Source of the DNA: an uncultured delta proteobacterium
Lineage (GTDB): Bacteria > Myxococcota_A > Polyangia > Fen-1088
Direction: 5' to 3'
Length of the DNA: 64,000 bases
NCBI GenBank assembly: GCA_963737265.1
Contig: CAVTRY010000023.1
Location: forward strand, 192,001 to 256,000
Shown here one piece after another: positions 5,367-59,579 of this stretch (position 1 is the first letter of the stretch; the number at the start of each line of letters is the position of its first letter). The notes under the pieces were generated by a model, which was given only the letters and a program-made list of their open reading frames with translations, was not told the origin of the DNA and searched no databases. A program made the translations under genes and the position numbers.

Positions 5367-6365
5367 ATGGCTAGACAGCGTTCCAAGGTGCTCGTCGTGA
5401 ACGGGGACAGCGAGATTGCCCTCGCCCTTCACCGTGCCCTCTATCTCGGAAACGATCGCTTCGACGTGCTCGTCGCGGGCAGCGCCGAAGTAGCCCGCGA
5501 GATCGTTCGCGACGTGGGCATCGAGGTGCTGGTCACCGATTCCGACCTACCCGGTATGAGCGGCGTGGATCTCGTGTGCTGGGCCGCCATCGAATTCCCG
5601 GAGAGTTTTTTCGTCGTGATCACGGACGACGATGTCCCCGACCTACAAGACAAGATGCAAGGGCTTGGCTGTCTGCGCCTGGTGCGTAAACCCTGTCAGC
5701 CACAAGCCGTCCTCAAGATCGTCCGCGAAGCGCTCGATTGTCGTCATCGGCTCTCGGGATGCTTCTCGGCCCTGTCTGCCGCCGATCTGATTCAAATGCT
5801 TTGTTTGGCCCAACGAACCTCGTCGCTCCACATCAGCGCCCATGGGGTGCAAGGGACGGTCATGGTCAAGGAGGGAAAGCTGCTCCATGTAACGTGGGGC
5901 ACGTTGGTCGGGCAACGCGCCCTGCGCGAAATCATCGCGGCGGAAGACGGCGTGTTCCGCACGGCCCCCCTGCCGCCCGAGATCGAGCCAACCATCACCG
6001 GCGACTGGCAGCACGCCCTGATGGAGGCCGTGCGCGCGCTCGACGAACGCGCGCATGGATCGCTGCGCCAGTCGGGATCGTTTCCGGCTATCCGCGTGGA
6101 CGACTCGCTTTTCGACAACATGCTAAGCAGCACGCCCGCGCAGGAGGCGAAACACGTGCGCGCCCCGAACAGCCACGGCGACGGGCGCGCCATGCCCCGC
6201 TCGCCGGGCGCGGCATCGTCGCTCGTGGACAAGGGATTCGCGGCGTTGCGGGCGGGAAATATCGACGACGCACGCCAGTGCTGGCTCGCCGCCAAGCACC
6301 TCGATCCGGAAAACCGTTCGCTCGATTTGAACTTGAAAAAACTGGAAGGCAAGACTTCCCGCTAG
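5367..6365 (+). CDS. Response regulator receiver + DUF4388 (PATAN-like) domain protein
   Basis: N-terminal REC (VLVTDSDLPGMSG, RKP); 'LSAADLIQMLCLAQRTSSLHI...G.V.VKEGKLLH' resembles DUF4388; TPR-like tail. Confidence 0.8.
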   Translation: MARQRSKVLVVNGDSEIALALHRALYLGNDRFDVLVAGSAEVAREIVRDVGIEVLVTDSDLPGMSGVDLVCWAAIEFPESFFVVITDDDVPDLQDKMQGLGCLRLVRKPCQPQAVLKIVREALDCRHRLSGCFSALSAADLIQMLCLAQRTSSLHISAHGVQGTVMVKEGKLLHVTWGTLVGQRALREIIAAEDGVFRTAPLPPEIEPTITGDWQHALMEAVRALDERAHGSLRQSGSFPAIRVDDSLFDNMLSSTPAQEAKHVRAPNSHGDGRAMPRSPGAASSLVDKGFAALRAGNIDDARQCWLAAKHLDPENRSLDLNLKKLEGKTSR

Positions 6366-12927: not shown

Positions 12928-13485
12928 TCACGAATGACCGGGATCGGACTTGCCCAGCAGGATGTCCTCGATGGCCGGATCCACGTACCCTCGGCTGGCC
13001 TCGCGCCCCTGCGCAAGCTGCTCCTGGCTCGCGCCGATGGCTCGCAGCACATGGGCCACCGCTTCGGGAATAGCTTGGCGAACCTCGGCGGTCAGATCGC
13101 GGCCATAGCGATCGAAGCACTGCCCCTCGATACCGACGAAGACGATGGACGGTCGACGTCCGCCGGGGGCCATGCGCTCGGCGACGTCGATGAGCTCCGC
13201 GATGCCCACGGTGTGCGAAATCGCGGCGCCGGCGGCGTAACGGGCGATGGCCGCGCCTTCCATCGCGACGCACGTCCCGGCCGGACGCCCCGTGCTCATG
13301 GCATCGACCAGAATAATTCGTTCCGCCCCTTGCACGACCTCCAGCAGATCGAAACCGAGTTGAGGTGTTAGCTCGACGTGCACGCCCGGCGGCAACGACA
13401 ACGACGCCAGAATTCGTCCCACCCGAATCGCAACGCCGTCGTCGCAAACCAGTTCGTTGCCCAAACAGAAAATTCGCGTGTTCAT
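12928..13485 (-). CDS. Hydrogenase maturation protease (HycI/HybD family)
   Basis: CLGNELVCDDGVA, IILVDA and SH motifs; adjacent to the hydrogenase operon. Confidence 0.9.
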   Translation of the reverse strand: MNTRIFCLGNELVCDDGVAIRVGRILASLSLPPGVHVELTPQLGFDLLEVVQGAERIILVDAMSTGRPAGTCVAMEGAAIARYAAGAAISHTVGIAELIDVAERMAPGGRRPSIVFVGIEGQCFDRYGRDLTAEVRQAIPEAVAHVLRAIGASQEQLAQGREASRGYVDPAIEDILLGKSDPGHS

Positions 13486-17120: not shown

Positions 17121-17204
17121 AAAAGACCCTTCTGCCCGCGCGGGAAGAAGGGTTCGGCTAACACCGGACGGCCTTCTCCGCGGAAGGACATTGGAAGTAC
17201 GTGG

Positions 17205-17387
17205 ATCGCGAGTGGATATCCTGGCTCGGAAGCAGCACGACAGGGTCGTGTGGCGTCGATTCTCGCCTTCCCAGGGCATGCACCCCAGTGGCGTCACGAG
17301 AATCTTCTTCTCCCTTACAGTGGCGGGACCGCGCCGGATTCGCACCGGCTTCCCCATTCAGAGGCGTGGCTACCTCTGACTCGCGAT
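17205..17387 (-). ncRNA. Cobalamin (AdoCbl) riboswitch
   Basis: The minus strand reads GGGAAGCCGGTGCGAATCCGGCGCGGTCCCGCCACTGTAA...GCCACTGGG...GGGAAGGC...GAGCCAGGA, closed by TCGCGAGT/ACTCGCGA pairing, 5' of a TonB receptor. Confidence 0.92.
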
Positions 17388-17563
17388 GGCTATTCAGTTT
17401 TCAGAACTGGGCGCACCCTAGTGATCCGGCGCGCGGCTGTCAAGCGCGTGTGCCTTTCTCGACGGAGGTGCGTCAGCCAAAGTTCTTCCCCTTGGGCTGA
17501 AACCTTTGCGGCATACCGGCAATCCAAGAGCAGCGCCGCTGTACTGCCGTGGCGTCTTCCAGC

Positions 17564-18696: not shown

Positions 18697-18870
18697 CTTC
18701 GCATAGATCCAACAAAATCAAACGGGCTGCGTTCGGTCTCGCAGATAATGGTCGACAAGGTCACTGCCGTCCGGCGTGACAAGATCGGGAAGGCCGTCGG
18801 TCGTCTGGATGACGGAACCATGGTGCGAGTCAACCGGGCCATAGCTCTGTGGTTTGGCCTTGTAGCGTAG
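18697..18870 (+). pseudogene. C-terminal fragment of a PemK/MazF toxin
   Basis: LRIDPTKSNGLRSVSQIMVDKVTAVRRDKIGKAVGRLDDGTMVRVNRAIALWFGL*; the N-terminus is absent. Confidence 0.8.
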
Positions 18871-19004
18871 TGCTAGATAGCCAATAGGCCATTGAGCTGG
18901 CCGCAGGAATAGCGGTACGCCCGGTTGCCGCTCTCGCTTGCGCGGGTTAGGAACACGCCGCATGCCTGTTCGCACCAAGCGCTGGAACGATCCCGCGGAA
19001 GCAG

Positions 19005-19205
19005 ACGACGGGCGAGCAGCACCACCAGCTCCGCGCCACTCGTCGCCCTGTGGATCTCTGTCGTCGGGCTGTACAGAATTTCGCTGAGCAAATCTAGGGT
19101 ATCCACATCGTCGTCGGCGATGACGATGCGCGCTGTCACCCATTCGCTCGGTTGCACTTGCCGTTGGGCCAGACGACCAAGCTCAGAAGCCGTTGACTGG
19201 TTCAT
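19005..19205 (-). pseudogene. N-terminal fragment of a response regulator
   Basis: RIVIADDDVDTLDLLSEIL...ATSGAEL, then an abrupt loss of similarity. Confidence 0.6.
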
Positions 19206-19612
19206 CAGAAACCTACCTTTCGATTCGCTGCAATCATCACGCTGCTCACGCTGCACAGCTCTGCATGGGGAATGCCAGAATAACGACGATGTCGCCCCGC
19301 CCGGCACAAGCAGATTTTTCGGCAATCCCGCTGGTCTGTTTCCGCCGGAATGTCGAGAGCGCATTGTCAATTCGCCCACGACATGCGGACCATGCCGGTC
19401 ATCTTTGCGAATAGCGCAGCCGATCTCTGGCGCGCACAGCGACTCCTTGTCGCGCGGCGCGGATTGGCTGCGACAAAACGACCCGGCAATAGCGTCGGTC
19501 CGTGCCCGCGAGAGGCGTGCCACAGGGCAGAATTCGACTCTGACGGACGTCACCGACCCGCGCGACACGACTTTCGGAGCAACATTTTGCTTCGCTTGCC
19601 GATAACCTTTCC

Positions 19613-19822
19613 ATGGCTATTCATCGAGCAGCAATCAAGACGAGCTTTTCCATGCACTCGGAGCCGGGTACGTGGTTTGGCAAATTCTTGACTCGGATCG
19701 GTTCAAGCGTCGTGAAAGACGTCCCGGCAAGCCTCGAAGCGTGCGAGTCATGCCGCGAAGAGACGTGCACGCAACAACGCTGGCTGAGCTGTGCCAAACG
19801 CCTCGCCGCCGAAGCGCAGTAA
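19613..19822 (+). CDS. Small Cys-rich hypothetical protein
   Basis: ACESCREETCTQQRWLSC pattern; coding status is not certain. Confidence 0.4.
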   Translation: MAIHRAAIKTSFSMHSEPGTWFGKFLTRIGSSVVKDVPASLEACESCREETCTQQRWLSCAKRLAAEAQ

Positions 19823-19915
19823 GCAACGAGCCGATGTTGCCCGTCGACGCACTGGAGCGAACGAGAGCATCGCCATCACGCGCCGCCACTTCGACGCAGC
19901 CCTCGGGCTTACGGC

Positions 19916-21322
19916 CTGATCCCTAACCGAGGGTAGTTTTCCGCAGATCCCTCCTGATCCCCTAACCGAGGGTAGTTTTCCTTTCCAGATCCCCAACCGC
20001 GCAGATCGCTAACCGCCGCGCAGATCCCTAACCGAGGGTCGAGATCCTAACCGCAGGGTCGAGATCCTAACCGCGCCGAGATCCTAACCGAGGGTAGTTT
20101 TCTCCCCTTCCCTGATCCTAACCGAGGGTAGTTTTCCGCAGATCCCTAACGGTTCCGCAGCTCCCTAACCGCAAACCGAGGGTAGATCCCTAACCGCAGA
20201 TCCCTCCGCCTGATCCCTAACCGAGGGTAGTTTTCCGCAGATCCCTAACGGTTCCGCAGCTCCCTACAGATCCCTAACCGAGGGTAGTTTTCACCGAGGG
20301 TAGTTTTCGTCAGATCCCTAACCGCGCAGATCCCAGATCCCTAACCGTCAGATCCCTAACCGAGGGTAGTTTTCACCGAGGGTAGTTTTCGTCAGATCCC
20401 TAACCGCGCAGATCCCCAACCGAGGGCAGTTTCGCGTAACCGCGCAGATCCCTAACCGAGGGTAGTTTCGCGTCGTCGTCAGATCCTACCGTGATCCCTA
20501 ACCGAGGGTAGTTTTCCTTTCCAGATCCCCAACCGCGCAGATCGCTAACCGCCGCGCAGATCCCTAACCGCCTGATCCCTAACCGAGGGTAGTTTTCCGC
20601 AGATCCCTAACGGTTCCGCAGCTCCCTAACCGCAAACCGAGGGTAGATCCCTAACCCAGATCCCTCTCAGATCCCTAACCGAGGGTAGTTTTCACCGAGG
20701 GTAGTTTTCGTCAGATCCCTAACCGCGCAGATCCCTAACCGAGGGTAGTTTCGCGTCGTCGTCAGATCCTAACCGTCCCAGATCCCCAGATCCCCAGATC
20801 CCTAACCGAGGGTGGTTTCCAGATCCCCAACCGAGGGCAGTTTCGAGGACCCCGACGTCCGGAATCCGGACGTTTCTGCGGTTTCGAAGCACCTCATCGG
20901 TTCTCGCAAAGTACCCTCGGACCGGGTCCAGAAGTACCCTCGGACCGGGTCCAGGGGTCATCAAGCACCTCATCGGTTCTCGCAAAGTACCCTCGGACCG
21001 GGTCCACCAAAGTACCCTCGGACCGGGTCCAGGGTCCACGCGGACCGGGTCCACGGGACCGCCCCAGATCCCTAACCGAGGGTGGTTTCCAGAATCCTCA
21101 ACCGAGGGTAGTTTCGAGGACCCGACGTCCGGAATCCGGACGTTTCTGCGGTTCGAAGCACCTCATCGGTTCTCGCAAAGTACCCTCGGACCGGGTCCAG
21201 GGGTCATCAAGCACCTCATCGGTTCTCGCAAAGTACCCTCGGACCGGGTCCACCGGACCGGGTCCACCCACCGGGACCGGGTCCACCGGACCGGGTCCAC
21301 CGGGACCGGGTCCACCGGACCG
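19916..21322. repeat. Mosaic repeat region built from AGATCCCTAACCGAGGGTAGTTT and AAAGTACCCTCGGACCGGGTCCA fragments
   Basis: About 30 whole or partial copies of the first unit, many of the second, plus higher-order duplications; no ORF is called between ~20000 and 20719. Confidence 0.95.
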
Positions 21323-21485
21323 CCGCGCGAAGCCTACGAGACGATGCGTCTGCTCTCCACCCGGAGTGCGAAAGATTTGCCAAGATTCCCCGTAACCGCC
21401 CCTGAGCGAGCTGCGTATGCAGGGGGAATCGCGGAATCCATCCAAAGGCTGGATGGACCCCGCAACCAGGAAAGGAACGTGACCC

Positions 21486-22547
21486 ATGAGAACTCATACG
21501 TTTAGTCGCACGTTGCAGTCGTGTGTTGCTGCCGTTGGTCTGCTCGCCGTTACCTCCAGCAGTCAAGCATCGACAGAAGACGGTAGTCAGCTATGTACGC
21601 TCGGCTCCTCGGGTGTGGGGCAGCCGGGCACTGTGATTTGCAAGAATGTTATGACCGGCGCGACCATACAGTCTGTCCCGGTCGGCACCACCATCGCTGG
21701 CCCTGGGGGCATCGCTGGCAACCTGACCCGCCACGGAAAGAGCGCGCTGGTGACGAACCAGTCGCAGGGCGCGGTGCTTTTCGAGGTGGTCGGGGGACAG
21801 TTGAAGTCGCCCGTCCTGCTTCAGACTGGCGGAGAGGGCTCGCTTTCCGGTGCCCTGAGCGACCGCGGCGCCTACGCGTTGACCGGCACGCGCCTGCTCT
21901 TCTTCCCCAACGGGGAGATGGCGGCCACGAGCAGCCGGGCGCTGCTTATGGCGGACGGATCGGCGGCGCAGGTCACGCTTGCGGGCGACCACGCCTACGT
22001 TTCGGAAAAGAGCGGCTCTCTCGAAGCCTTTTCCCTTGGCCACGACGGCAATATCGTAGGCGGCGCCACGCCGGTTGCCGGAGTTCCCGCCGGCGTGATT
22101 GTGGGCATCACCGGGGTCAGTGATCTGGTCGTGTCGCCCATCGCCCACTTGGCCAGCAATGCCAACCAGTCGACCATTCCAGTCGTCAGCGGGCTCAGCG
22201 TCGGCCAGATCGTCCCGACCAAAGAGGTCGCGGCTTGCTGGGCGGCCAATGACGGCGACGAAGCGTGTGTCACGAATCCGGGCAGCATGACGGTTTCGTG
22301 CGGGCACCTTGGATCGTCCGCCTTCACCAGCTACACCAGCGCCGCGGCTAGCCTCAGCGGAGACACGGTCTTCGACATCGGCATGATGGACATGTCGGTC
22401 GGTATTCTGGGCATGAGCAGCGGAGCACCAGTGCTTCTTACCTTCAGGCGCATGAAACAAGGTGGGGACTTTCTGAGCCCGATCGGGGAATTCCCACTTG
22501 GCATGTCCACTGCCACAGGCGCGATGCTCCTGCCCGCGATTCAGTAA
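21486..22547 (+). CDS. Secreted hypothetical protein (beta-rich)
   Basis: AGGAAAGGA RBS, signal peptide, clean 353-aa ORF. Confidence 0.75.
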   Translation: MRTHTFSRTLQSCVAAVGLLAVTSSSQASTEDGSQLCTLGSSGVGQPGTVICKNVMTGATIQSVPVGTTIAGPGGIAGNLTRHGKSALVTNQSQGAVLFEVVGGQLKSPVLLQTGGEGSLSGALSDRGAYALTGTRLLFFPNGEMAATSSRALLMADGSAAQVTLAGDHAYVSEKSGSLEAFSLGHDGNIVGGATPVAGVPAGVIVGITGVSDLVVSPIAHLASNANQSTIPVVSGLSVGQIVPTKEVAACWAANDGDEACVTNPGSMTVSCGHLGSSAFTSYTSAAASLSGDTVFDIGMMDMSVGILGMSSGAPVLLTFRRMKQGGDFLSPIGEFPLGMSTATGAMLLPAIQ

Positions 22548-27259: not shown

Positions 27260-27344
27260 TCAAGATCGCCGCGGAGTTACGAATTGCACCGCCGCGAATT
27301 GTACCCAAACCCCGCGTCCCTGGCCATCGCGCACGCGCGGGAAG
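27260..27344 (-). repeat. Degenerate copy of the last 85 bp of batE (28748-28832)
   Basis: Colinear similarity including CGTCCCTGGCCATCGCGCACGCGC and the stop codon; encodes RVRDGQGR..WVQ.AAVQ.V.PRRS*. Confidence 0.9.
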
Positions 27345-27474
27345 CATGCTCGCTGAAGCGGGTGCCAAATGGTCAGCGCACATGGACCATCCTTGCCATT
27401 GCGGTGCGGTTAGGCCAAGTTATGCGGCGCTCGTTGCCGCGTTCCGGCTGCGCGCCACCTTCATTCGACGGTCT

Positions 27475-28747: not shown

Positions 28748-29527
28748 TCACGATCGCCGGGGAACGACCAATTGCACTGCCGCCGATTGTACCCAACCCC
28801 GGCGTCCCTGGCCATCGCGCACGCGCAGGAAGTCTCCGTGGTGGCCGATGATGGAGATCTCCTCGCCCTCGCTGAGCACGGCTTCGCTGGCCGCCGAATC
28901 GAACGGAGAGACTCGGACGGGCGCGGTCTTTCTCTCGACGACCACCGCATGATCCAGATCTCGATCCAGAACCACAGCCGCAGCAAGTGTCGACACGCCA
29001 ACCAGGGCGGCGAAGACCCCGGCATGGACAAGGCGACGCATCCGCCACTTTCGTCCCGCTAGAAACGCCACACACGCCAGCCAGAAACCGGAGAGCGCAA
29101 GCAGGGTCCAGGTGGTCAGAGAAAAGGTCCGTGCCAATCGCTGATACCAAGGTTGCATAGGAGCCGGCAGACCGGCCTTCGCCCGAACATAGGCCAGGTT
29201 GGCTGCGATGTCAGGATCGCGCGGCGCAAGCACCTGCGCGCGCTCGTAGTTCAATACCGCAAGGCCCACATTGCCCTCCTGGGCATAAGCGTTGGCGAGA
29301 TCGTAGAGGAGCGGTGCCGACCACCCGTGCGATCGCGCGAGAGTGTCGAAATCCGCCACTGCATCGGCGTAGTGTCCCCCGGAATAGGCGCGGTTGGCCT
29401 CGTCGAAGCTCGGGCCACCCGACTCGGCGCGTGCGGGGCTGGCAACGCTCAGCACTACAGCAGCCGCTAGTAGGAAGCTGCCGGGGTTCAGCCAACGCGA
29501 CAAGGTCGACGATGTCCCACAGGTCAT
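28748..29527 (-). CDS. batE: BatE-like TPR + SH3 protein
   Basis: TPR (YDLANAY...AVLNYERA...P.D.DI..NL), two TMs, SH3-like GWV; operon position. Confidence 0.8.
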   Translation of the reverse strand: MTCGTSSTLSRWLNPGSFLLAAAVVLSVASPARAESGGPSFDEANRAYSGGHYADAVADFDTLARSHGWSAPLLYDLANAYAQEGNVGLAVLNYERAQVLAPRDPDIAANLAYVRAKAGLPAPMQPWYQRLARTFSLTTWTLLALSGFWLACVAFLAGRKWRMRRLVHAGVFAALVGVSTLAAAVVLDRDLDHAVVVERKTAPVRVSPFDSAASEAVLSEGEEISIIGHHGDFLRVRDGQGRRGWVQSAAVQLVVPRRS

Positions 29528-37199: not shown

Positions 37200-37660
37200 C
37201 CCACCCCTTCTACGGTTGCTTTTCGATCGCGTTCTTCACGCCAGCAGCCGTCGTGCTGACTGGGGCTCCTCTCGACATCGCGCCGCTGTCGCGTCCGGCG
37301 AAGGAGTAGACTAATCGCGCGCACCATCAAGGTTACCCCCGACCAGGCCATCACAATCGCTAGCGGTACAGCGACTACCCTCGGCCAAAGAACCGCGATG
37401 GTAGCTCCCGCAAGGAGGATGCCGGCGAAGATTGCCATCAGACTGCTTTGAACAAATCCGACTGACCGCTGCCGACTGACCACGCTCCCCACGGCGTGGG
37501 CAAACCGGACGGCGCCGATGGCTCGCCCCGATGCTCCACGGGACGCAGCCTTGGCCCGCTCTCCACGAAGAGGTGCGCTGGCTTCAGGAACCACGCGACG
37601 ATTGAGACCGATCACGCTCTCGGTGGCGTTCTCCAGGTCCGCGAGAAACATCTCCTCCAT
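37200..37660 (-). pseudogene. C-terminal fragment resembling a cardiolipin synthase/PLD family protein
   Basis: MEEMFLADLENATE...AVLWPRVVAVPL tail; no HKD motifs present; cut by an IS remnant. Confidence 0.55.
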
Positions 37661-40600: not shown

Positions 40601-40884
40601 ATGGCAGTTTCGGCGTCTGGCTTCTCCACGAGACGCTTCACGTGTTATGCGCGATCCGATGCGGCGCCGAGCCTGTCGCGCCAGCGCCACCGCCACGCAA
40701 AGGCTTTGTAGCAGCACCAGCCCAGCCATGCCCGAGATGCGGTGGACGAGGGTCAGCACCACCTCGGCCAACCATTCGTGATTCAGCCAGGGCTGCCGCG
40801 ACGTGTACGAAAACGGTGAAGTGGACCCCAAAAATGGGACCAGGAGCTAAGGTGTAGTCCGCCTCAACAACGAGGCAGGACACG

Positions 40885-41178
40885 ATGAAAACGAACCGCC
40901 AAAAGCACACAGCACTCTTCAAGGCGCAGGTAGCTCTCGAAGCCATGCGGGAGCAGGCAACGGTTGTGGAGATCGGGCGCCGATACAAGATCAACCCGAA
41001 CCTGGTTCACAAGTGGAAGAAGGAAGCCGTCACACGGCTGGCCATGGTTTTCGAACCAGGCCATGCAAATGCAGAGGAATCGGCGAACGCCGAACGCGAA
41101 TCGGAATTGCTGCGCAAGGTGGGGCAGCTGACGCTGGAGAATGATTTTTTAGCACGCGGGCTCGCGCGCATTCGCTGA
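40885..41178 (+). CDS. IS3 transposase OrfA (HTH)
   Basis: FKAQVALEA and LVHKWKK; T-run slippery candidate GATTTTTTAG near the end. Confidence 0.9.
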   Translation: MKTNRQKHTALFKAQVALEAMREQATVVEIGRRYKINPNLVHKWKKEAVTRLAMVFEPGHANAEESANAERESELLRKVGQLTLENDFLARGLARIR

Positions 41179-41192
41179 CGGAGAAGCGCGCC

Positions 41193-42029
41193 ATGATCGA
41201 GCCCCACAACGACCTATCTGTCCGTCGGCAGTGCGAGCTGCTGAATCTTGCGAGATCGGGCATCTACTGGGAGCCGATGCCGATGGCAGAGGAAGATCTG
41301 GCCATCTGCAAGGAGCTGGACAAGCTGCATCTCGAATTGCCAGCATTCGGCAGCCGGAAGCTGTCACGGTTGCTAAAGGCACAGGGGCAGACGGTGAATC
41401 GCAAACGGGTGCAGAGACTGATGCGAATCATGGGCATCGAAGCGCTGGCGCCCAAACCACGGACGACCGTGCCCGCGCCGGAACATACGAAATTCCCGTA
41501 CTTGCTGCGCCATCTCGCGATCATTCGGCCCAATCAGGTGTGGGCCTCGGATATCACGTACATCCCGACGAGACAGGGGCATTGCTACCTGGTCGCCGTG
41601 ATGGATTGGTACACGCGCCGGGTTCTGTCCTGGCGCATTTCAAACACGATGGACAGCCGTTTTTGCATCGAGGTCGTGGAAGAAGCTCTTGCGAACTTCG
41701 GCTTGCCGGAGATCTTCAACACCGACCAGGGGTCGCAGTTTACCGACGACAACTTCACATCGGTTTTGCTGGACAAGGGCGTAAAGGTCAGCATGGACGG
41801 TCGCGGCCGATTCATGGACAACATCTTCGTCGAGCGTCTATGGCGGTCTGTCAAATGCGAGGAGGTCTACTTGAACGACTACCGAGACGTGGCCGACGCC
41901 CGCAGTGGCATCGCGATCTACCTGGACAAGTACAACCACAGGCGGCCTCACCAAACCCTTGGATTTCAGACACCCGTAGCGTTTTACGAATTCGAACTAA
42001 AGAAGTCGGCGATGAAAGAGGCCGCCTAA
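41193..42029 (+). CDS. IS3 transposase OrfB (DDE)
   Basis: WASDITYI, NTDQGSQF and DNIFVERLWRSVKCEEV motifs. Confidence 0.95.
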   Translation: MIEPHNDLSVRRQCELLNLARSGIYWEPMPMAEEDLAICKELDKLHLELPAFGSRKLSRLLKAQGQTVNRKRVQRLMRIMGIEALAPKPRTTVPAPEHTKFPYLLRHLAIIRPNQVWASDITYIPTRQGHCYLVAVMDWYTRRVLSWRISNTMDSRFCIEVVEEALANFGLPEIFNTDQGSQFTDDNFTSVLLDKGVKVSMDGRGRFMDNIFVERLWRSVKCEEVYLNDYRDVADARSGIAIYLDKYNHRRPHQTLGFQTPVAFYEFELKKSAMKEAA

Positions 42030-42540
42030 ATCGCCGCTGCATCATGCTGATGGCACGCTGCCCACAACTGCAACGCGTTCACCTGCTTCTGTGGGGCCGT
42101 GCGCGCATTGCATCCGTGGACAGCAGCCATCAGCATGCCTCCGCTCTCAACAATTTCCTTGCCGGCGAGGCTCACCCGGATCTACAAACAAACCCACGCG
42201 GACTCTCTCTTAGCTCGGGCCATTTCTGGTCCTACCAAAGGGGTCCACTTCACGGATCGGTGGCGGGCAGCGCGTGCCGCGTCAGGATTTCTTGTCCCGC
42301 ACGCAGGTACCAGAATAGGTCGAAGGACACGGGGCGATGGGCCGCCAAGACGGCCATGGCCAACAGCAAGAGTGTCCAGCAAAGGGGGGCTGCTGGCTGC
42401 CCAAAGCCGGGCTTGGCGCGGACTTTGGCGACGAGTAAGTCGGACGACACGACCTTGGCAGAGTAGCGAAGATCCGCAAAACTACACGAGCAAAGGGAAA
42501 TTGCGCCGAAATTGGGTATGAATATCGGCGGGAGGTCCAC

Positions 42541-47149: not shown

Positions 47150-48931
47150 GGGTGGGTTGCACGGGTCCGGGTTTCATGACTGGGCGGCCTGGGCTTGGGT
47201 GTGAGGCCAGAGGGCGAGCCAGGCCCCCGGGTTGTAGAAGGCAACCCTGAGCGCGACCATGGCTTCAAGGCCGACCTCGCTCCAGAGCATGCCGCCTTGC
47301 TTGCAGCGCCGGCCGACGAGGCGCTTGTTGGTGCTTTCGATGGCGGCACTGGCCAGCGGATAGCCGGCAGCGTGGTATGCGGGGTAGTCCATCATGTGCT
47401 TGTGGCGGCTCAGGTAGCCGGTCAAGTCGTCGAGGGCTTTGACCGCTTGGCTGCCGGTGGAGCGCTGCCGCTCTTGGGCGAGGCCCGAGAGCACCTGGTC
47501 GACCTTGCCGTCCATGATGGCCTCGGTACGTGGCAAGACCCAAGATGGCACTGCTTTCTTGTCCGGCACGACCTTGTGACCTGCCTCCCAGACATGCTGC
47601 TTGGCGTGCTGGCAGTCGAGGATGCCAAGCAACGGCTGGTCGCAGAAGATCTCGTCGCTGTGCTCGATGAAGTAAGCGCCACCGTCGGAGACACGGACTA
47701 CCTTCTGGCGAGACAGCACGCCCTGGGTCGTGGCGGCGGCGTGCAGCTTGTGCCAAAAGCCGTCTCGGTCGTTGAGTGTTGCGACGTAGCGCCGGTCCAG
47801 CAAGACGCCTCGGCCGGGGCTCTCCTCGCAGGCGTGTTCCCCGAGGTAGGTCAGTCCCATGCACACCTCGCGGCCGGCGACCCGTGGTGAGCGCCCGGTG
47901 GGCCCCATGGGCGAGCCAGCGACCTCGGACAGGGTACTCGGCGCCTGATGGCGAAGGGCACGTTCGCCGGTCTCGCTGACCGCTGCCGACTGTGTGGCGT
48001 TCGGGACCGCAGACGGCGCCTTCGCCTCGTCGGTCGCTTTGCGCCGTGGCTCTTGTCCTGGTTTCCAGGTCAGGACGTGAACACCGTCAACCTCGATCAC
48101 GCCGAAGCCCTCTGTACGCTTGGGCGCACACAGGTCACCGCGAGCCTGGGCGTGCACCTGTTGGTCGTACTTGCTCCAATGGGCTTCGGCATCGGCCTGG
48201 GCGGCCTGGGCGGCACGCGTTCCATCTTCGGTCACCCATCGCTTGGCGGTGCTCCCGTCGGGAGCCACGGCCCACAGGTAACGGAGTTCCTCGACGGCCT
48301 CGTCGAAGCTGCCCATCCGGCAGGCCAGCCTTTCGGTCGCCTCGCGCACATCGTCGGCGTATTCGCCCGCAGGAAGGCCCCAAGCCTCGTCAAAGGCAAA
48401 CCAGCTGCGGCCGCAAACACACTCGTTGCGTCGACGATCGGCTTCCACCCGACCGAATCTCGCCACGAACGTCGTTCTCTCAAATCCTCTGGATTTGGCT
48501 TGCTTTCCACAGGTGCAGACTTGTCCAGGTCCATGAGCCCGCGCGGCCTGCTGGATGACCAGTTCCATGGCTCTTCGGCCCACAGTCGACAACGTCGTCG
48601 CCAGCGCAGCCCCCAGCGTCGCCACGGACATGCCATCGCCGCGCAGCGCTTGTTGTTCGAGCTCGTTCAATTTCTGGACGAGCGGTTCCAGAGCCTGCAA
48701 AGTCAATCCTGCGACATTGGGTCGTCTCATGGCGGTGCCTCCTTCTTGGATAGCTGAAGGCATCGCCATGAATCTCCTTCCTACGCAAATTCCTTCCATT
48801 TTGGGAACCACGCCAGGGCCCGTTTTCCGAGCGCGCCACCCACCAACTCGCCCTCGAATCAACGTCCCGTAGCGCGCTCGGAAAACGGGCCCTTCAGCCG
48901 CCACCAGAACCCGGGCCCGTGCAACCCACCC
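47150..48931 (-). mobile_element. ISKra4-like insertion sequence
   Basis: IRs GGGTGGGTTGCACGGG(T/C)CCGGGTT at both ends; 9-bp duplication TCAAGCCTG (47141-47149, 48932-48940). Confidence 0.9.
47174..48730 (-). CDS. ISKra4-family (UPF0236-like) transposase
   Basis: EVDG, SDGG, LDCQHA and SAAIESTNK...R.KQGGMLW motifs; AGGAGG before ATG 48730. Confidence 0.85.
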   Translation of the reverse strand: MRRPNVAGLTLQALEPLVQKLNELEQQALRGDGMSVATLGAALATTLSTVGRRAMELVIQQAARAHGPGQVCTCGKQAKSRGFERTTFVARFGRVEADRRRNECVCGRSWFAFDEAWGLPAGEYADDVREATERLACRMGSFDEAVEELRYLWAVAPDGSTAKRWVTEDGTRAAQAAQADAEAHWSKYDQQVHAQARGDLCAPKRTEGFGVIEVDGVHVLTWKPGQEPRRKATDEAKAPSAVPNATQSAAVSETGERALRHQAPSTLSEVAGSPMGPTGRSPRVAGREVCMGLTYLGEHACEESPGRGVLLDRRYVATLNDRDGFWHKLHAAATTQGVLSRQKVVRVSDGGAYFIEHSDEIFCDQPLLGILDCQHAKQHVWEAGHKVVPDKKAVPSWVLPRTEAIMDGKVDQVLSGLAQERQRSTGSQAVKALDDLTGYLSRHKHMMDYPAYHAAGYPLASAAIESTNKRLVGRRCKQGGMLWSEVGLEAMVALRVAFYNPGAWLALWPHTQAQAAQS

Positions 48932-49698: not shown

Positions 49699-49796
49699 CT
49701 AAAGCCGCACAAGACTTGCAACCTCGATGTTCCAGCACGAGCTTGTATCGTAGATGACCTCCAGCCCGTTCGCGTTGGCGAGACCGAAAGATATTG
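49699..49796 (-). repeat. Degenerate copy of the effector 3' end (stub 4)
   Basis: ISFGLANANGLEVIYDTSSCWNIEV immediately after the immunity-like stop codon. Confidence 0.85.
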
Positions 49797-51035
49797 TCAG
49801 TAGGCAATCAGCAGCCAGTCGCCTTCGCTGCTCTGGCCGATGGCGAAGCGGGGGCGTTTGAACTTCGTTCGCTGCAGTTGGAGAAGAATTTCTCTTATCT
49901 CTACCTTGTTTTCGGCAATGATGTTTCCGTGTTCCGTAACGCTCGAAAATTTCCTGCAGCTGTTGTCGTGAAAGAGCACTTGCGCTGCCCAAGTAGGAGC
50001 TACGACCTCGCCTCCAAAGTCTGCCAATTTGCGCTTCCAGACTGTCTCCAACCCACGATTTGTTCGGAAGAGAACCGTGTCATCTCTTTCATCGCTGATT
50101 TTCCAAAAGAGGAAATCACTGCCCCGAGAGGCGAACGGCAGACTTGTAGGTGCCCGTTCCGTTTCGTACCTGGTGCGGACCAACCCCCCCCATCGCGGTA
50201 TGCCAGTCGGATCTTGAGGGCTCTTGCCTTTGGACCAGAACCATTCCCGCTTCGTGTTCATCCACGAAAGCGCCTTTTGCACTACGACGGCTCCCCGTGT
50301 GTCGAGAACAGTTGCTGTCGACGGCCAGACCTCGTCGAACAGGCCAGGTACATTGCCATAGGGGTAGATCTCCTTGAAGGCCTCGATGAGGAGTAGATCC
50401 CCCGCTTCGGAGGCTATCGCTCCAGTCTGATCGAGCTGGAGCCCGCACGAACAGGGTTGTTTAGCGTCTCCTGCCGAATCGGGGCAGCGCGGTTTGTCGA
50501 TAGCGGCCAAGGGGCGCGACTTTTCCACCGACTCGCGGCCATCAAGATCGAAATAGGAAACGACCTTATCGCTCACCACCCACAGCCCGGTGGGACTTGA
50601 CCGATAGAGCGTAGTCTTCGTGGCCTGAACGACGAATGACCGAGCCCGGCCCTTGTGCAGAGTCCCGGTATCGATTTCGACGACCTCGCTGGCACTCGCT
50701 ACGACGAAGCGGTTGCCAAAGACCTGCCCGGTCTTGACCTCGCCGACGATGTCGAGAGGGCTTCGTCCCAGCTCGTGCCCCTCTCTGTCCCAAAGCATGA
50801 GAGCGAGGGCATCCGTTTCCAGGTTCTTCACAATGGCCAGGATCTTGCCCCCGGGCAAGGGATAGACCGGCGGTATGAACTCGCCTTGCACCTGCCAGCT
50901 TGCCTGCCATCCCGTGAGCTGCAGTCGTTGGCTCAGACCACGCACCGTCACTCGATTCTCTTCGGCGCGAACATTGCCCGTCATGATAAGTCCTGCAAAT
51001 ACGAGTCCAGCAAATACGAGGATCGCACATCGCAT
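49797..51035 (-). CDS. Putative immunity protein paralog 4 (signal peptide)
   Basis: Paralog of 58348-59565; ends RPRFAIGQSSEGDWLLIAY. The function is inferred from context. Confidence 0.7.
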   Translation of the reverse strand: MRCAILVFAGLVFAGLIMTGNVRAEENRVTVRGLSQRLQLTGWQASWQVQGEFIPPVYPLPGGKILAIVKNLETDALALMLWDREGHELGRSPLDIVGEVKTGQVFGNRFVVASASEVVEIDTGTLHKGRARSFVVQATKTTLYRSSPTGLWVVSDKVVSYFDLDGRESVEKSRPLAAIDKPRCPDSAGDAKQPCSCGLQLDQTGAIASEAGDLLLIEAFKEIYPYGNVPGLFDEVWPSTATVLDTRGAVVVQKALSWMNTKREWFWSKGKSPQDPTGIPRWGGLVRTRYETERAPTSLPFASRGSDFLFWKISDERDDTVLFRTNRGLETVWKRKLADFGGEVVAPTWAAQVLFHDNSCRKFSSVTEHGNIIAENKVEIREILLQLQRTKFKRPRFAIGQSSEGDWLLIAY

Positions 51036-51046
51036 GGCTACAGAGC

Positions 51047-51445
51047 CCTATCGGTAGGGGGCGAATTGGCGACGCCACGAAAAGTTCGGGGCTTCGTTAT
51101 CGTGGAGGAGACCATCTGTCGGCTCTCACGGTATATCTGAGTGCCTTCCCACTCGGATTCACCAGGGAGCGGCGCATCTCTCTCGCTCTGGCCCACCTAT
51201 TCGCCAACCCATAGGGGGCGCGCAGCGGCGGTCAAGGGCGCGCAGCGGCTCGCGAAGCGAGCGAACCCTTGACGGCTGCGAGCACCCCCGCACGATTGCC
51301 GAATGTGGGACGCGGGTGCCCGTCCGCCCTTGGGTGTCCGTGATAATCCACCCGGTGGATCACGAAATAGCGTGATATCCAACACCAGCATTCTCACCAT
51401 AAGTCGTAGATGTCCTCCAGCCCATTCGCGTTGGCGAAACCGGCA
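51047..51445 (-). repeat. Effector 3' stub 3, interrupted by a ~290 bp structured insert (51111-51400)
   Basis: GFANANGLEDIYDL | insert | LLHDNEAPNFSWRRQFAPYR*. Confidence 0.8.
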
Positions 51446-51729
51446 TCAATACGCGATCAGCAACCAATCTCCCTCGGCACTCTGACCGATGGCGAAACGG
51501 GGTCGCGCGCCTCGCGTGGCGTCCTGTTCTAGATAAATCTCTCGGATGGGCACGGTCGCCTCGACCTTGTGCCCCCCGCGATCAGAAATACTTGAGAACC
51601 GATAGCGGCTATCGTGAAGAAGAATTGACGATGTCCACGATGGCGAGATGAAGATCTGACCTGGGAAATCCCGTAGGCTGCGTTCCCACGAGATGCTGGA
51701 CGTCAACTACATTCACCCGGTGACGTCAA

Positions 51730-52578
51730 TTACATCGCCCCATTGTTGTCGGGGGTAGTTGTCGTTGGTTGATCGGTAGTTGTCGTAGTTGTCGCTGGGG
51801 TGGTGACGCCTCTCTTTCGTGCTTCTTCGCTGCGGTAGCTGGGGCCGGTCATCTCAAGGATGACCGCGTGGTGGACCAGTCGGTCGATGGCGGCGGCGGT
51901 GGTCATGGGATCCTTGAAAATGCGGATCCAATCGCTGAAGACCAGGTTGCTGGTGATGAGGACGCTCTTGCGTTCGTACCGCTCGGCCAGGAAGGTGAAA
52001 AGGACCTCCATTTCATCGCGGCTCTGCTGGACGTAGCCGATGTCGTCGAGGATCACGGCGTGATAGATGTCGAGCGCGGCCAGTTCTCGTTCCAGGCGAA
52101 GGTCGCGCTTGGCGGCCAGCAGCCTCTGGACAAGCGCGAAGGTCGGCGTGAAGAGGACCCGGTAGCCGCGCCGGATGAGTTCGTGGCCGATGGCAGCCAC
52201 AACGTGACTTTTGCCTCGGCCGGGCAGTCCGAAGACGAGCAGGTTCTCCCCACGTTCGACAAAGCCACCCTCACACAGGCTCGCCATCTGCTTCATCACC
52301 TTGGGTGACAGCCGACCACGTTCCAGGGTGGCCAGGGTTTTCTCCGTGGGAAGGTCCGAATCGCGAAGCGCGCGATCGATGCGACGGGTTCGGCGCTCTT
52401 CGATTTCCAGTTCGGCCAGGTGCTGGAGGTATTGGCTGAAGGTCCACCCCTCGCGGCTGGCCTTGATCGCGATCTCCTCGGCGTGCCGGGTGAAGGCAGG
52501 CAGCTTGAGCGCGCGCAGAAGCACCAGCAGAGCGTCGAGCGCGCTCGGCTTGACCGTGTCTACGGAGACGTTGGTCAT
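51730..52578 (-). CDS. istB: IS21 helper ATPase IstB
   Basis: GLPGRGKSH, ILDDIGY, ITSN and AAIDRLVHH motifs. Confidence 0.95.
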   Translation of the reverse strand: MTNVSVDTVKPSALDALLVLLRALKLPAFTRHAEEIAIKASREGWTFSQYLQHLAELEIEERRTRRIDRALRDSDLPTEKTLATLERGRLSPKVMKQMASLCEGGFVERGENLLVFGLPGRGKSHVVAAIGHELIRRGYRVLFTPTFALVQRLLAAKRDLRLERELAALDIYHAVILDDIGYVQQSRDEMEVLFTFLAERYERKSVLITSNLVFSDWIRIFKDPMTTAAAIDRLVHHAVILEMTGPSYRSEEARKRGVTTPATTTTTTDQPTTTTPDNNGAM

Positions 52579-54073
52579 GATGCCACCTGTTCGAGGAGCA
52601 GGTCGTAGGACGCGAGATCGACCAGCGGTGCTTCGAGCGCGGGGACGCTCGGTGGATAGGTACTGTCCGTCGCCTGTGTGCATCTCTTCTTGGTTGCATC
52701 CGCCGTCAAGATGGTCCCATCGGCAAGCAGAGTCGTGAGCGCTTGCTCAACATCGGCTTCCATCGTGCTGGCGGCCAGGTGAAGAATGCGCAGGTATTCA
52801 ACGTCGCCTTTGATTCCAGGCTTGGTCGCCTGGATCGCGTCGTATGCCCGCCTGAAAGTCACGCTTGGAAACAGCTCTTCTCGGTAGACGTAGCGAGAAA
52901 ACGCGCCCGGCTTGCGCACCAAAGACCAGATGACGTGCCGGTAGTCGATGCGCGCGGTCTTGCCTCGCAGCCTGTCGCAGGCCAATTCCAAGTTGTCGGC
53001 GTAGTACACCTCGATTCGGTGCTCGAACACGCGGACTCTCACCCGTGCGCCGATCAGCCTCGACGGCACCGAGTAGGCGCACGACTTGACCCGGATGGTG
53101 CTCGTCGACGCCACAGGTGCCGTCATTTCTGCGTACTCCGGCAAACGCTCCACCACCAGCGGCCGCATGGCTTCGATCTCCTCGGCGACGCGCGGGCCTC
53201 GCGAAGCGTTGGCTTTGCGGACCACCTTGGCTACGAAGCGTTCGTAGTCGTCTTGGTCCGCGAAGTCGCGGCTGCCACGCACCAGCAGCGCTTGTTCAAG
53301 CCGACGCTTGAGCGCGCCGTTGCTGGCCTCCACATCGCCGTTTTGTTCCTTGGCCCCGACGGCTGTAGTTCGTGGCTCCATTCCGAGGTGCCGCATGACC
53401 GCCTTGTATTCATCGTTGAAAGTGCGATCTTCCGCATCGCGAGCGATCTGATGTGTCGCCGCCGTCGAGTGGTCGGTTTGGTGGTATCGCGGCACCCGCC
53501 CAAGCTGGAACAGCGCCGACTGGATCCCTCGCCGAAGCGCTGCCAGAGACTCCGACAGACACGCGGTCGCCCATTGCCAGTTCGAGTACGGCAGCACCGT
53601 CACGCACAAAAGGTGCACAAATAGCTGGCCCACGATCGTCACACCAAGCTCCGCCGTCGACGTGAAGTCGGTTTGCGCGGCTTCACCGGGCCGATGCGCC
53701 TGCGTGAACCAAATCTCACGCGCAGGACCATGCTCGGCCCGCCAGCGACGGATTCGCCGCTGCATTGTCCGAAGATGGCTCTCGTTGTACCGCCCTGGCT
53801 GCTTCGCCTCCAGCAGCTCCAGCACCGTCTGAGCCTCCAGCCCAGGCGTTTCCTCCAGCAACTTGGCCACGGCTGGCCAGTCCTCGGCGAACGCGTCAGG
53901 CGCGTCCGCCACCACCGCGGCTGCCGTAGCTCCGACGGTAGCTTGCCCGCGGCGATGTATCGCCGCCCTGTCTTCCGGTCCATGCCCGCCTTCATGGCGG
54001 CCTGGCCTACTTTTCCAATCTTGCTCATCTCTTCCATCAAACGCCTCACTTGGGCGTCGGTGACCGGCTTCAA
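52575..54073 (-). CDS. istA: IS21 transposase IstA (apparent 1-bp deletion ~53898)
   Basis: AGGAGG + TTG start; HTH (AGMDRKT.RRY); WRTR/PDAF split; QTDFT, TDH, NGDVE and YSVPSRLIG motifs. Confidence 0.9.
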
Positions 54074-55161
54074 AGGTGCCTCCTGCCCGCTTGCGGGCTT
54101 GGAGGTCTACCTCACGGTCACCGTCGCGCCTCAAAGCGGGGCGACGTAGCTGTCGTCTTTGGGGAGATGTAATTGTCGCTCAGCAACGAGAGGTCGAATC
54201 TGCGATCTCTACGCTGCAAAACCGTCTCTCGCGATCCCGAGATGAACAGGAAGTCGGTGCCGCGAGAAACGAAGAAACGGCCTGCTCCGATTCCGTCGGT
54301 CACATATCGGGTTCGCACCAGTCCCCCGCGGCCGATGCCAATCGGATTCTGAGAGCCAGTGCTCTCACTCCAGAACCATTCCCACTTGGTCTTCATCCAG
54401 GAATAGGGTCTTTGTACGATGATGTGTCCCTGGTAATCTAGAACTGTCACGACTGAAGGCCAAACCTTGTCGGTTGCACTGGTGCTGATAGGATATCTCT
54501 CCAAGTAGACATCGAGAATCAACACCTCGCCGGCATCGGATACCAGCATCTCCGCTTCGTTCGGTTGGAAGCCTGCCGAGCAAGGAGCTTTGATGCTCGT
54601 GAAGTCACTTGGACATGCAGGTTTGTCCGAAACTGACACCAACGGCCGAGTCTTTGTCACGGGGGCGCCGCCGTCCAAGTCGAAGTAGGAAAGCGCTCGA
54701 TCGCTGACTGCCCAAAGGCCGGTGGGTCCGGCGAAGTATGTGGTCTTCTCGGAGGGAACAGGGAACTTTCGCGTCCGGCCAGGGCTCAGGCTGTCGGTGC
54801 CGTACTCCGCGACCTCACCCGCCGACGCGATGACCACGCGCTTGTCGAAAACGCGAGAGGCCACTATGCCACCTGCGAGAGCCAAGGAAGATTGGGCCAG
54901 TTCTTGGCCTTCCTTGCTCCACAAGACAAGATCTCTCGGCTCCTTCTCAGGCGACTTGACGACGGCGAGAATCTTGCCGCCTGGAAGCGTATGGAGAGGT
55001 GGAAAGACCTCACCCCCGGCCATCCATGAGGTCTGCCAGCCGCTGAGCTGTAACCGTTGGTTCAGTCCGCGGACTGTCACGCGGTCTCCTTCTGCGCGAG
55101 CGTTTCCGGTCATCATCAATCCTGCCAAGGTGAGAAGGAAGCATTTCATCGCACCACGATC

Positions 55162-55377
55162 CTACTTGTAGGCGACAAATTGACGGCGCCAGGTGAAGTT
55201 GGGGGCTTCATTGTGGGTGTGGAGGAGTCCGGCGTTCTCGCCGTGGGGAATGATGTCGTACTTCTGCGGACCCCAAAAGTTCCCGAACGATGGCTTGGCC
55301 TCGACCTCGATGTTCCAGCGCGAGCTGACGTCGTAGATGTCCTCCAGCCCGTTCGAGTTGGTGAAGCCGAAGGACAT
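55162..55377 (-). CDS. Intact 71-aa copy of the effector C-terminus (stub 2)
   Basis: ATG 2 nt after the immunity-like stop; MSFGFTNSNGLEDIYD...NEAPNFTWRRQFVAYK*. Confidence 0.7.
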   Translation of the reverse strand: MSFGFTNSNGLEDIYDVSSRWNIEVEAKPSFGNFWGPQKYDIIPHGENAGLLHTHNEAPNFTWRRQFVAYK

Positions 55378-55379
55378 CG

Positions 55380-56591
55380 TCAATAAGCAATCAGCAGCCA
55401 GTCGCCTTCGGCGCTTTGGCCGATGGCGAAACGGGGGCGCTCGTAGTGAGTCTTTTGCTGCTCCTCCGCGATCCCATCGATACTGATCAGCTGCTCCCTT
55501 TTGCTTCGGCCTTGGTCTGATATGGTCGAAAATCTGTAGCATCCATGGTCGTGTAAGAGCATGGGTGAAACCCAGGATGGAGAGCTGATGAACCCGCCGG
55601 CAAGATCTCGAATGCTTTGTTTCCAAACCGGTTTAAGTAGTCGGTTCCAGCGGTGAATGACCATTTCGTCTCTGCCAGACCAGTAGAGGAAGTCGCTACC
55701 ACGGGAGGCAAAGAGACGGCCAGCGGCGATGCTATCGGTAACATATCGGGTTCGCACCAGCCCCCAGTCTGCAGGGCCTCCGGATTGTGGGCTACCTCCT
55801 TGGGTCCAGAACCATTCCCGCTTGGTCTTCATCCATGAGTAAGGCTTCTGCACCGCGATGTTCCCACGCGAATCGAGAACGGTCACGGCTGAAGGCCAAA
55901 CCTGGTCTGGGAGCACCCCAGTCGTACTGATTGGATATCTCTCTAAGTAGACATCGATGATGAGCATCTCTCCGGTGTCGGATACCAGCATCTCCGCTTC
56001 GTTCGGCTGGAAGCCTGCCGAGCACGGCTCTTTTATGCTCGAAGGGTCACTGGAACACGCAGGCTTGTCCGAAACCGACACCAATGGCCGAGTCCTTGTC
56101 ATGGAGGCGCCGCCGTCCAAGTCAAAGTAAGAAAGCGCTCGATCAGTGACCACCCAAAGGCCGGTAGGTCCGGCGGCATATACGGTCTTCTCGGAGGAAA
56201 CGGGCAACTTTCGCGTCCGGTCGGGGCGCAGTTTGTCGATGTCGTACTCCACGACCTCACCTGCCGACGCGATGATAAGGCGCTTATCGAAAACGCGAGA
56301 AGCCACTACGTCACCTGCAAGCGCCAAGGGAGTTCGTGCCAGTTCGCGGCCTTCCTTGCTCCACAGGACGAGATCCTTCGGGTCCGTCTCTGGTGCGTTG
56401 ACGACGGCGAGAATCTTGCCACCTGGAAGCGTATGGATGGGGGGAAGAATTGCGCCTTTGGCCAACCATGAGGCATGCCAGCCAGTGAGCTGCAAGCGTT
56501 GGTTCAGTCCGCGGACTGTCACGCGGGCCCATTCAGCGTGGGCGTCTTCGACCATCATCAATCCTACCAAAATGAAAAGGATGTATCTCAT
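55380..56591 (-). CDS. Putative immunity protein paralog 2 (signal peptide)
   Basis: RVTVRGLNQRLQL...EGDWLLIAY; GGGGAG RBS. Confidence 0.75.
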   Translation of the reverse strand: MRYILFILVGLMMVEDAHAEWARVTVRGLNQRLQLTGWHASWLAKGAILPPIHTLPGGKILAVVNAPETDPKDLVLWSKEGRELARTPLALAGDVVASRVFDKRLIIASAGEVVEYDIDKLRPDRTRKLPVSSEKTVYAAGPTGLWVVTDRALSYFDLDGGASMTRTRPLVSVSDKPACSSDPSSIKEPCSAGFQPNEAEMLVSDTGEMLIIDVYLERYPISTTGVLPDQVWPSAVTVLDSRGNIAVQKPYSWMKTKREWFWTQGGSPQSGGPADWGLVRTRYVTDSIAAGRLFASRGSDFLYWSGRDEMVIHRWNRLLKPVWKQSIRDLAGGFISSPSWVSPMLLHDHGCYRFSTISDQGRSKREQLISIDGIAEEQQKTHYERPRFAIGQSAEGDWLLIAY

Positions 56592-56603
56592 CTCCCCGCG
56601 ATC

Positions 56604-58136: not shown

Positions 58137-58240
58137 GCGGCTAGGTTAATCGATACTCGGGCGCGGGCGAGAGACTTCGGCCCGGCGCACCGCGCCGTCG
58201 CCGCGCTTGGCGTGGGATTACGGATGTCGGGGGTGGGGGC

Positions 58241-58345
58241 TCAGAAATTCCCAAAGGATGGCCTGGCCTCGACCTCGATGTTCCACCGCGAGCCGAGGTC
58301 GTAGACATCTTCGAGGCCGTTCGCGTTGGCGAAGCTGAATGACAT
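58241..58345 (-). repeat. Truncated effector 3' stub 1
   Basis: MSFSFANANGLEDVYDLGSRWNIEVEARPSFGNF* (TGG changed to TGA). Confidence 0.85.
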
Positions 58346-58347
58346 CG

Positions 58348-59565: not shown

Positions 59566-59579
59566 GGCTGCGCGGTTTC

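Follow-up and report, generated by a model that had tools for sequence, protein, structure and literature searches.

A patchwork of nested, truncated repeats in an uncultured delta proteobacterium, very probably a gene-less end array of a RAYT-like element

Y1 genes flanked by non-GTAG inverted repeats, which also occur alone or grouped, are described as TIRtrons in the available sections of Di Nocera 2013 (PMC3733652). In the available text of Quentin et al. (PMC6006769), TIRYTs are linked to subclass 2.1 and no REPs are given beside subclasses 2.1 and 2.3. REPINs are reported only with RAYT groups 2 and 3 in the corresponding parts of PMC5581495 and bioRxiv 2021.07.10.451892, and ordered tandem REPIN clusters are known (PMC3116915, in part). 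For the RAYT groups without canonical REPs no substrate is known, and the amplification and diversification of REP/BIME arrays is still a model, as far as the available sections of PMC6006769 and bioRxiv 2021.07.10.451892 go. After cleavage by an HUH enzyme, the tyrosine is linked to the downstream fragment at its 5' side, and the upstream fragment has a free 3'-OH (PMC3333891 and PMC8266576, in part). Two models are illustrated in the available portion of PMC3333891, namely excision-integration (Fig. 7A) and the nick-primed amplification of BIMEs (Fig. 7B), in which the host extends the 3'-OH as a primer before it is joined again to the first phosphotyrosine.

The window (the whole stretch of DNA that was analysed, 64 kb in length) comes from an uncultured delta proteobacterium, and its repeat region at 19917-21322 was read in the original prediction as a mosaic of shuffled fragments of two related 23-mers. 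Motif A (AGATCCCTAACCGAGGGTAGTTT) was present in the window in 5 exact copies, with 13 at ≤2 mismatches and 18 at ≤6 mismatches, the last of which were confined to 19917-21114 and to the + strand, in agreement with the single strand predicted. The predicted number of about 30 copies was reproduced with the 5' 12-mer of motif A, for which 30 matches (≤1 mismatch) were obtained vs 0.25 expected from shuffles; GATC unit starts numbered 41 in the repeat region and represented 30 distinct unit types. Motif B was present in 5 exact copies, with 6 at ≤2 mismatches. Since CCC-nnn-CCGAGGGTA-S-TTT is common to motif A and the reverse complement of motif B, A and B are inverted ends, and the second zone, rightly assigned to the other 23-mer, is therefore an array of the same type as that of A on the opposite strand. 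The box CCGAGGGTAS, a putative transposase-recognition site with its first copy at 19927-19936 (+ strand), is common to both 23-mers; it had 26 exact matches in the 64-kb window vs 0.09 expected from shuffles, 24 of them inside the element (18 on the + strand and 6 on the - strand), and none of the 14 aligned units, which were chosen by the box and came from the window and three other genomes, showed a change in it. Box arrays were found at this one locus of the window only. Lone exact boxes without the remaining unit were observed within ORFs at 12985-12994 and 37375-37384, the shuffles having given ≤1.

The recurrence of blocks of about 80 bp proved to be exact over 75 bp (19960-20034 = 20496-20570) and 79 bp (20117-20195 = 20578-20656), respectively, the latter being the longest exact internal repeat of the region, with no 80-mer repeated. 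No single period was found in the region, in which only short local tandem arrays with periods of 8-76 were detected, in agreement with the statement that it is no fixed-period tandem repeat, and it did not resolve to a VNTR; the statement that it is no CRISPR was borne out by unit lengths of 7-44 nt, by recurring linkers and by the lack of any Rfam match in the repeat region. The window's only Rfam match was a cobalamin riboswitch (17194-17399), which precedes a TonB-dependent receptor. In 19400-21600, neither promoter-like nor terminator-like sites were detected, no tRNA was found, no match was obtained by blastn of the repeat region with plasmid and phage sequences, and the ORFs crossing the array were translations of the repeat. 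The mosaic at 19917-21322 was confirmed as a real feature. An assembly or library artefact, which had been allowed for in the original prediction, would fit the single-base homopolymer variants between copies (CC/CCC/CCCC), but is highly improbable, because exact repetition within the region ends at 79 bp and the same build is shared by three other genomes; the box is, moreover, translated in six independent database proteins. These points clear the architecture, not the exact array length here.

The array is neighboured by a 69-aa ORF without family and by a lactonase-like protein; for the window's right neighbour, the top Atlas cluster was commonest in Myxococcota, and the next two were from other phyla. 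About 0.7-1.2 kb to the left of the array, a patchwork of gene fragments was observed at 18709-19205, in which a PemK/MazF gene is represented by its 3' third and a response regulator (- strand, weak Pfam match) by a truncated start, with a short intervening stretch that we take to resemble a DUF488 start (no match in the family search). An IS3-type element (40816-42253) and an ISKra4-like element (47150-48931), both with inverted repeats, were also seen in the window, the latter with a 25-bp inverted repeat inside it (48815-48893). At 49721-62210, paralogous ORFs on the - strand recur at a spacing of about 1.44 and 2.97 kb; they lack a Pfam family (a metallophosphoesterase domain is present in one), and their cluster is interrupted by an IS21-type element (51730-54134). 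A diverged segment of ~60 bp, present at 27280-27345 and 28765-28830 upstream of two different genes and in opposite orientations relative to their starts, is perhaps a shared promoter element.

In the left end array (19917-20843, + strand), 40 units of end motif A follow one another head-to-tail; most of them retain the outer start W-GATCCC and are either truncated inward, mostly at position 13, or of full length (23), with short, C-rich and A-poor linkers at their joints. A higher-order duplication is superimposed on it, by which the unit order 3-4-5...1-11...15-16...20 of 19955-20491 is found again in 20492-20779. The minimal unit of ~110 bp (20821-20930) consists of one end A, the core and one inverted end B, and forms a single long imperfect hairpin as a REPIN-like doublet, in which the inverted match reaches about 32 bp. 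The folding energy of this hairpin (20819-20932) was -24.6 kcal/mol on the + strand (z -3.16), with z -2.20 on the - strand, whereas single units folded no better than their shuffles (z -1.13 to +0.73). Beyond the minimal unit, 39 more A units are added to the left, and opposite-strand B units to the right. The core of ~65 bp (20844-20907), located between the ends and carrying a palindrome (20855-20873), separates the two zones and is itself duplicated; the CGAGAAC(C) that adjoins the B box in it was also present directly upstream of the RAYT-like start codons at three related loci (L004, L007 and L002). The first copy of the right end array (20887-21061, - strand) is composed of B units with the retained outer start TGGACCC and with inward truncation to lengths of 44, 23, 22, 13 and 7 nt. 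The arrangement of two A units, core and B array is present twice, 270 bp apart, first from 20796 and again at 21066-21322, and both copies open at an A start; the second right end array (21156-21322, - strand) terminates in five short GGACCGGGTCCA-type fragments. The units of the element form long runs of the same orientation, with changes of direction confined to the core and the 270-bp duplication. Just beyond the left end, a small palindrome, AGCCCTCGGGCT (19898-19909), includes CCCTCGG, which is complementary to 7 bases of the box, and could be a target feature or due to chance. The sequence ACCGCCGCGC, from the linker of one recurring unit (20003-20021), is seen again at the right boundary of the element (21318-21330), possibly by a template switch or by chance.

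For the estimation of polarity, distinct junctions were counted with duplicates collapsed, and uniform starts (2/18) were taken as the null. Under p-values that presume independent junctions, which shared history violates, the downstream unit started at position 1-2 in 22 of 30 junctions of the window's left array (p 2e-15), in 8 of 8 of its right array (p 2e-8) and in 24 of 36 of the eight arrays from three other genomes (p 4e-15), and the upstream unit stopped at ≤14 in 20 of 30, 6 of 8 and 16 of 36, respectively. The array fragments thus keep their outer end and are not randomly shuffled, contrary to the original prediction. In the left zone, 37 of the 57 parsed segments opened at the G of GATCCC (positions 1-2 pooled), and the segment ends clustered at position 13 (16 segments) and position 23 (18 segments). 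The linkers, predicted to be very short, were indeed short, but in the left zone their length varied between 0 and about 13 nt; most junctions contained extra linker bases, which at the distinct left junctions amounted to 58 C, 25 T, 19 G and 4 A. Each array was mostly made of its own 5' variant, with left and right variants unmixed within a zone, as local copying would predict. Internal starts were found at 8 of 30 left junctions, some of which fit microhomology (CCG, AG) or a 16-bp tandem duplication, and the outermost right-hand fragment was without the fixed start. A C|T or C|A joint, as in the known cleavage by TnpA-REP, was seen at 18 of 22 junctions of the left array, at 2 of 8 of the right one and at 9 of 24 in the other genomes, the background being about 30%, and a general junction rule of this kind was dropped as true for the left array only.

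By these junctions the growth of the arrays through the host can be weighed, i.e. that the element is the same, the transposase has been idle since insertion, and short G+C-rich repeats allowed the arrays to grow by unequal recombination and by slippage during replication. The CCG or AG microhomology junctions, the 16-bp tandem duplication from mid-unit, the exact blocks of 50-79 bp and the lack of an enzyme gene in the window agree with it. It gives, however, no reason for one fixed boundary, nor for the accumulation of starts at position 1-2, which is seen on opposite strands for the two ends and again in three other genomes whose 5' variants differ, and most junctions contain extra linker bases, of which just 4 of 106 are A in the left array. 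Growth of this kind is therefore considered rather unlikely.

The GTDB genomes were scanned by exact match with a pattern spanning both ends, and 7 loci were returned. Two of these (L005 and L006), each a lone match in a Bacteroidota record that had no second exact box, were deemed chance and excluded from the array counts. The other five were from three MAGs labelled Proteobacteria or delta proteobacterium, with eight small arrays of the same build. A RAYT-like Y1/HUH gene was present beside the arrays at three of these five loci, intact in two and internally deleted in one, and no such gene was found in the 64-kb window or in the surrounding DNA examined of L001 and L003. At L007, the intact gene of 316 aa is bracketed by two inward-facing arrays; at L004, the intact gene (81% identity to that of L007) has an upstream array, and the contig stops 123 bp past the stop codon; at L002, both arrays lie around the internally deleted gene, in which residues 1-9 are fused to 138-305, with a further array about 1 kb away. 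A candidate 3-bp target-site duplication (ACG) was seen by eye at L007 and none at L002, and the right boundary in the window was unclear. Gene-bearing and gene-less arrays coexist, because L003 and L004 share a genome and L002 and L007 share a contig. The neighbours of L002 (5056-6407), L003 (6413-10328) and L007 (93-923) are presumably toxin-antitoxin, HTH and AAA-ATPase look-alikes, i.e. variable regions.

When searched for elsewhere, the window's 23-mer was found exact twice at L003, in another genome. About 110 bp of unrelated DNA (6045-6145) lie there between two exact 23-mers and are cut off at the next unit start; this insert we take to resemble the left end and the first codons of an IS5-type element. 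Such DNA between exact copies would fit excision-integration, by which end fragments are excised as ssDNA pieces or circles and re-inserted beside the ends with old target DNA as linkers, and which shares the link to the same enzyme and the fixed 5' joint. The arrays are, however, mostly homogeneous for their own 5' variant with left and right variants unmixed, and the linkers are very short and of low complexity, by which this route is judged to be improbable.

Since similar patchworks flank a transposase gene in related genomes, the region in the window is likely a footprint of that enzyme. It is very probably a gene-less RAYT-like end array, and we read it as an end array that is non-autonomous and has overgrown, belonging to a RAYT-like (TIRtron-like) element that probably stems from Myxococcota. 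An HUH/RAYT-like enzyme acting in trans, as suggested at the outset, is in keeping with the gene flanked by box arrays at three of five loci and absent from the window, while the chemistry of cutting and rejoining is what we infer.

The cognate protein of L004 and L007 (316 aa) was assigned as a RAYT-like Y1/HUH transposase. The NCBIfam model NF047646 (REP_Tyr_transpos) was matched at 31.5 and 30.5 bits (E about 1e-7), below its curated cut-off of 80; no Pfam match was obtained for the L004 and L007 proteins alone, and Y1_Tnp was matched by 46 of 107 relatives. In the 107 aligned sequences, H60, H62 and N124-P125 were conserved in ≥90% and Y120 was invariant, and N59-H60-x-H62, Y120 and N124-P125 conform to the RAYT / TnpA-Y1 class 2 arrangement (HuH to Y---NP about 58-67 aa). 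A HTH or Bac_DnaA_C Pfam match was not found in the 107 members at E≤0.01. The structure model of the protein (pLDDT 96.6) had E. coli TnpA-REP (4ER8) as the top match by Foldseek (E 1.4e-7) and by VIA (Z 15.1, rmsd 2.5, 154 aligned), with IS200/IS605 TnpA second-best, and 4ER8 was also the top PDB match by profile (E 9e-4), the PDB search with the single sequence having given no meaningful match. The TnpA-REP fold is thus predicted for the cognate protein. Homologues in the databases numbered 2253 at E≤0.001, many JGI relatives being named RayT; the Atlas look-alike clusters were commonest in Myxococcota, and tblastn of the L004 protein vs plasmids and phages gave no match.

With a Y1/HUH gene inside these ends in other genomes, an RT-templated (telomerase- or DRT-like) addition or a DDE-transposase MITE is extremely improbable. 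Templated addition, too, typically leaves a constant start and variable stops, and the inverted ends, opening TG/AG, would suit a MITE. The RT-like alternative of the original prediction found no support, as no RT was detected among the 55 window ORFs scanned and the gene beside the arrays of the relatives is of the Y1/HUH type; the IS3-, IS21- and ISKra4-type elements of the window are >19 kb off and without a box copy. An IS3/IS4-like DDE reading of the ends was abandoned because the enclosed gene proved to be Y1.

Of the 120 close homologues listed, 6 were annotated with N-terminal extensions of >16 aa; the translated box was present in each of these, in 5 exactly and in 1 by variants allowed after it had been seen, the background being 0.0026 per residue. 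Among 150 representatives (50% clustering) searched with a stricter pattern, the box was shown by an extended close relative at 84% identity and by 0 of 9 extended distant relatives (37-42% identity). Because it is shown by the extended close homologues and by none of the nine distant ones, the box appears, by sequence comparison, to be specific to the close clade of the cognate protein.

Nick-extend-rejoin by the transposase is the best mechanism in our analysis, and we hold it with moderate confidence. It starts from the anatomy, the polarity, the gene linkage, the fold and the catalytic residues given above. The element would be laid out as an inward left end array, a gene (here the 65-bp core) and an inward right end array. 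The 316-aa transposase, encoded elsewhere and acting in trans, would bind the box CCGAGGGTAS and nick about 10 nt upstream of it, at the outer end of the unit, its tyrosine remaining linked to the 5' end. The upstream free 3'-OH would then be extended by a host polymerase, so that the unit is re-copied, or be trimmed back; copying would often stall at the box edge (positions 11-13) or just beyond (23), and such stalls would often leave a few slipped or untemplated C-rich bases as the origin of the linkers. Finally, the 3'-OH would attack the phosphotyrosine and thus become connected with the fixed start. Over many such rounds on either strand, a set of nested, truncated ends that share one start may build up, and the block duplications of ~290 and 270 bp may stem from longer run-throughs. 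The nick position, the polymerase step, the linker origin and the action in trans are here predicted parts of the scheme. Under nick-primed amplification, the downstream start should be fixed and the upstream stop variable, the two strands should mirror each other, and duplications should begin at unit starts; all of this was seen. Against a purely nick-extend-rejoin course are the internal starts, the failure of C|T / C|A outside the left array, the poor unit hairpins, the outermost right fragment without start and the cognate gene not being in the window.

The 24 intact boxes in 1.4 kb and the invariance of the box beside varying flanking positions would also suit an array that selection keeps as a multivalent site where the transposase or a host protein binds or is decoyed, its history being secondary; many units are, however, truncated ahead of the box with irregular spacing, no promoter- or terminator-like site was found in 19400-21600, and the polarity is left unexplained, so that such selection is very unlikely. 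Tentatively, with nick-extend-rejoin retained, the 316-aa Y1 clade might recognise a non-hairpin box and re-copy its ends from a fixed nick with untemplated bases, by which the array could be an ordered tape of events, an extension that we regard as doubtful. If true, nick-primed amplification would gain direct evidence from genomes, and RAYTs of the type described without REPs would gain an activity; a Y1 nuclease directed by a sequence box, not a hairpin, would also widen the HUH recognition modes. A cognate pair is defined by the 10-bp box with its predicted nick site and an intact enzyme, and the arrays log many separate junctions, the polarity of which directly tests nick-extend-rejoin. 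The effect on the host is probably small.

Neither the CCGAGGGTAS box nor polar arrays of nested truncations were found described in the literature searched, which lay largely outside subscription journals, and neither the box nor the searched myxobacterial names were found in the supplementary text files of PMC3733652 and PMC6006769. The element resembles the REP/BIME/REPIN systems with TnpA-REP of E. coli, Pseudomonas and Stenotrophomonas in the closest solved structure (4ER8), in two inverted units that give a long hairpin of about 110 bp (20819-20932, z -3.16) as in REPINs, and in its locally amplified mosaics, for which the nick-primed amplification model was published. A known REP/BIME family, into which the region might have resolved, was nevertheless not recognised: unlike in a canonical GTAG REP, there is no 5' GTAG foot before a stable hairpin, GTAG/GTAC being 3' of a stem of 3-4 bp; unlike in BIMEs, the units within a zone are head-to-tail and not alternating REP/iREP; and the truncations are inside the repeat itself. 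REPs and REPINs have many dispersed extragenic copies per genome; the 64 kb covered here gave one locus. With IS200/IS605 TnpA the HUH/Y1 fold is shared, but the ends here are symmetric, inverted and without stable subterminal hairpins, the cognate protein has Y---NP and theirs Y---Q, and two copies in one genome are diverged, not identical. The studied Y1 enzymes recognise hairpins, whereas single units here fold poorly. In comparison with subclass 2.1 of Quentin 2018 (= Bertels group 1 RAYTs), the protein has 316 aa vs a subclass median of 238, and the C-terminal HTH-like tail present in all 20 TIRYTs assigned there had no HTH Pfam counterpart in the 107 members.

With TIRtrons/TIRYT the element shares the RAYT-like Y1 gene between non-GTAG inverted repeats (on both sides at L007 and L002, on one side at L004), the NHxH and Y---NP motifs at similar spacing, and the occurrence of repeats singly, as dimers and in groups, the window copy itself being gene-less. 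It differs from them in the conserved box, CCGAGGGTAS here vs GGGGWSAS in most, not all, TIRs; no exact match to GGGGWSAS was present in the 14 aligned units, the outer 8 nt of which have 1-2 mismatches to its complement by eye. Each end here is, moreover, a polar stack of nested truncated copies, and theirs is one TIR. Because the REP/BIME features were lacking, the TIRtron layout was present, and the HTH tail and an exact GGGGWSAS were absent, the element was not filed in any described family; it works like a REPtron/BIME, and its layout is closest to that of the TIRtrons.
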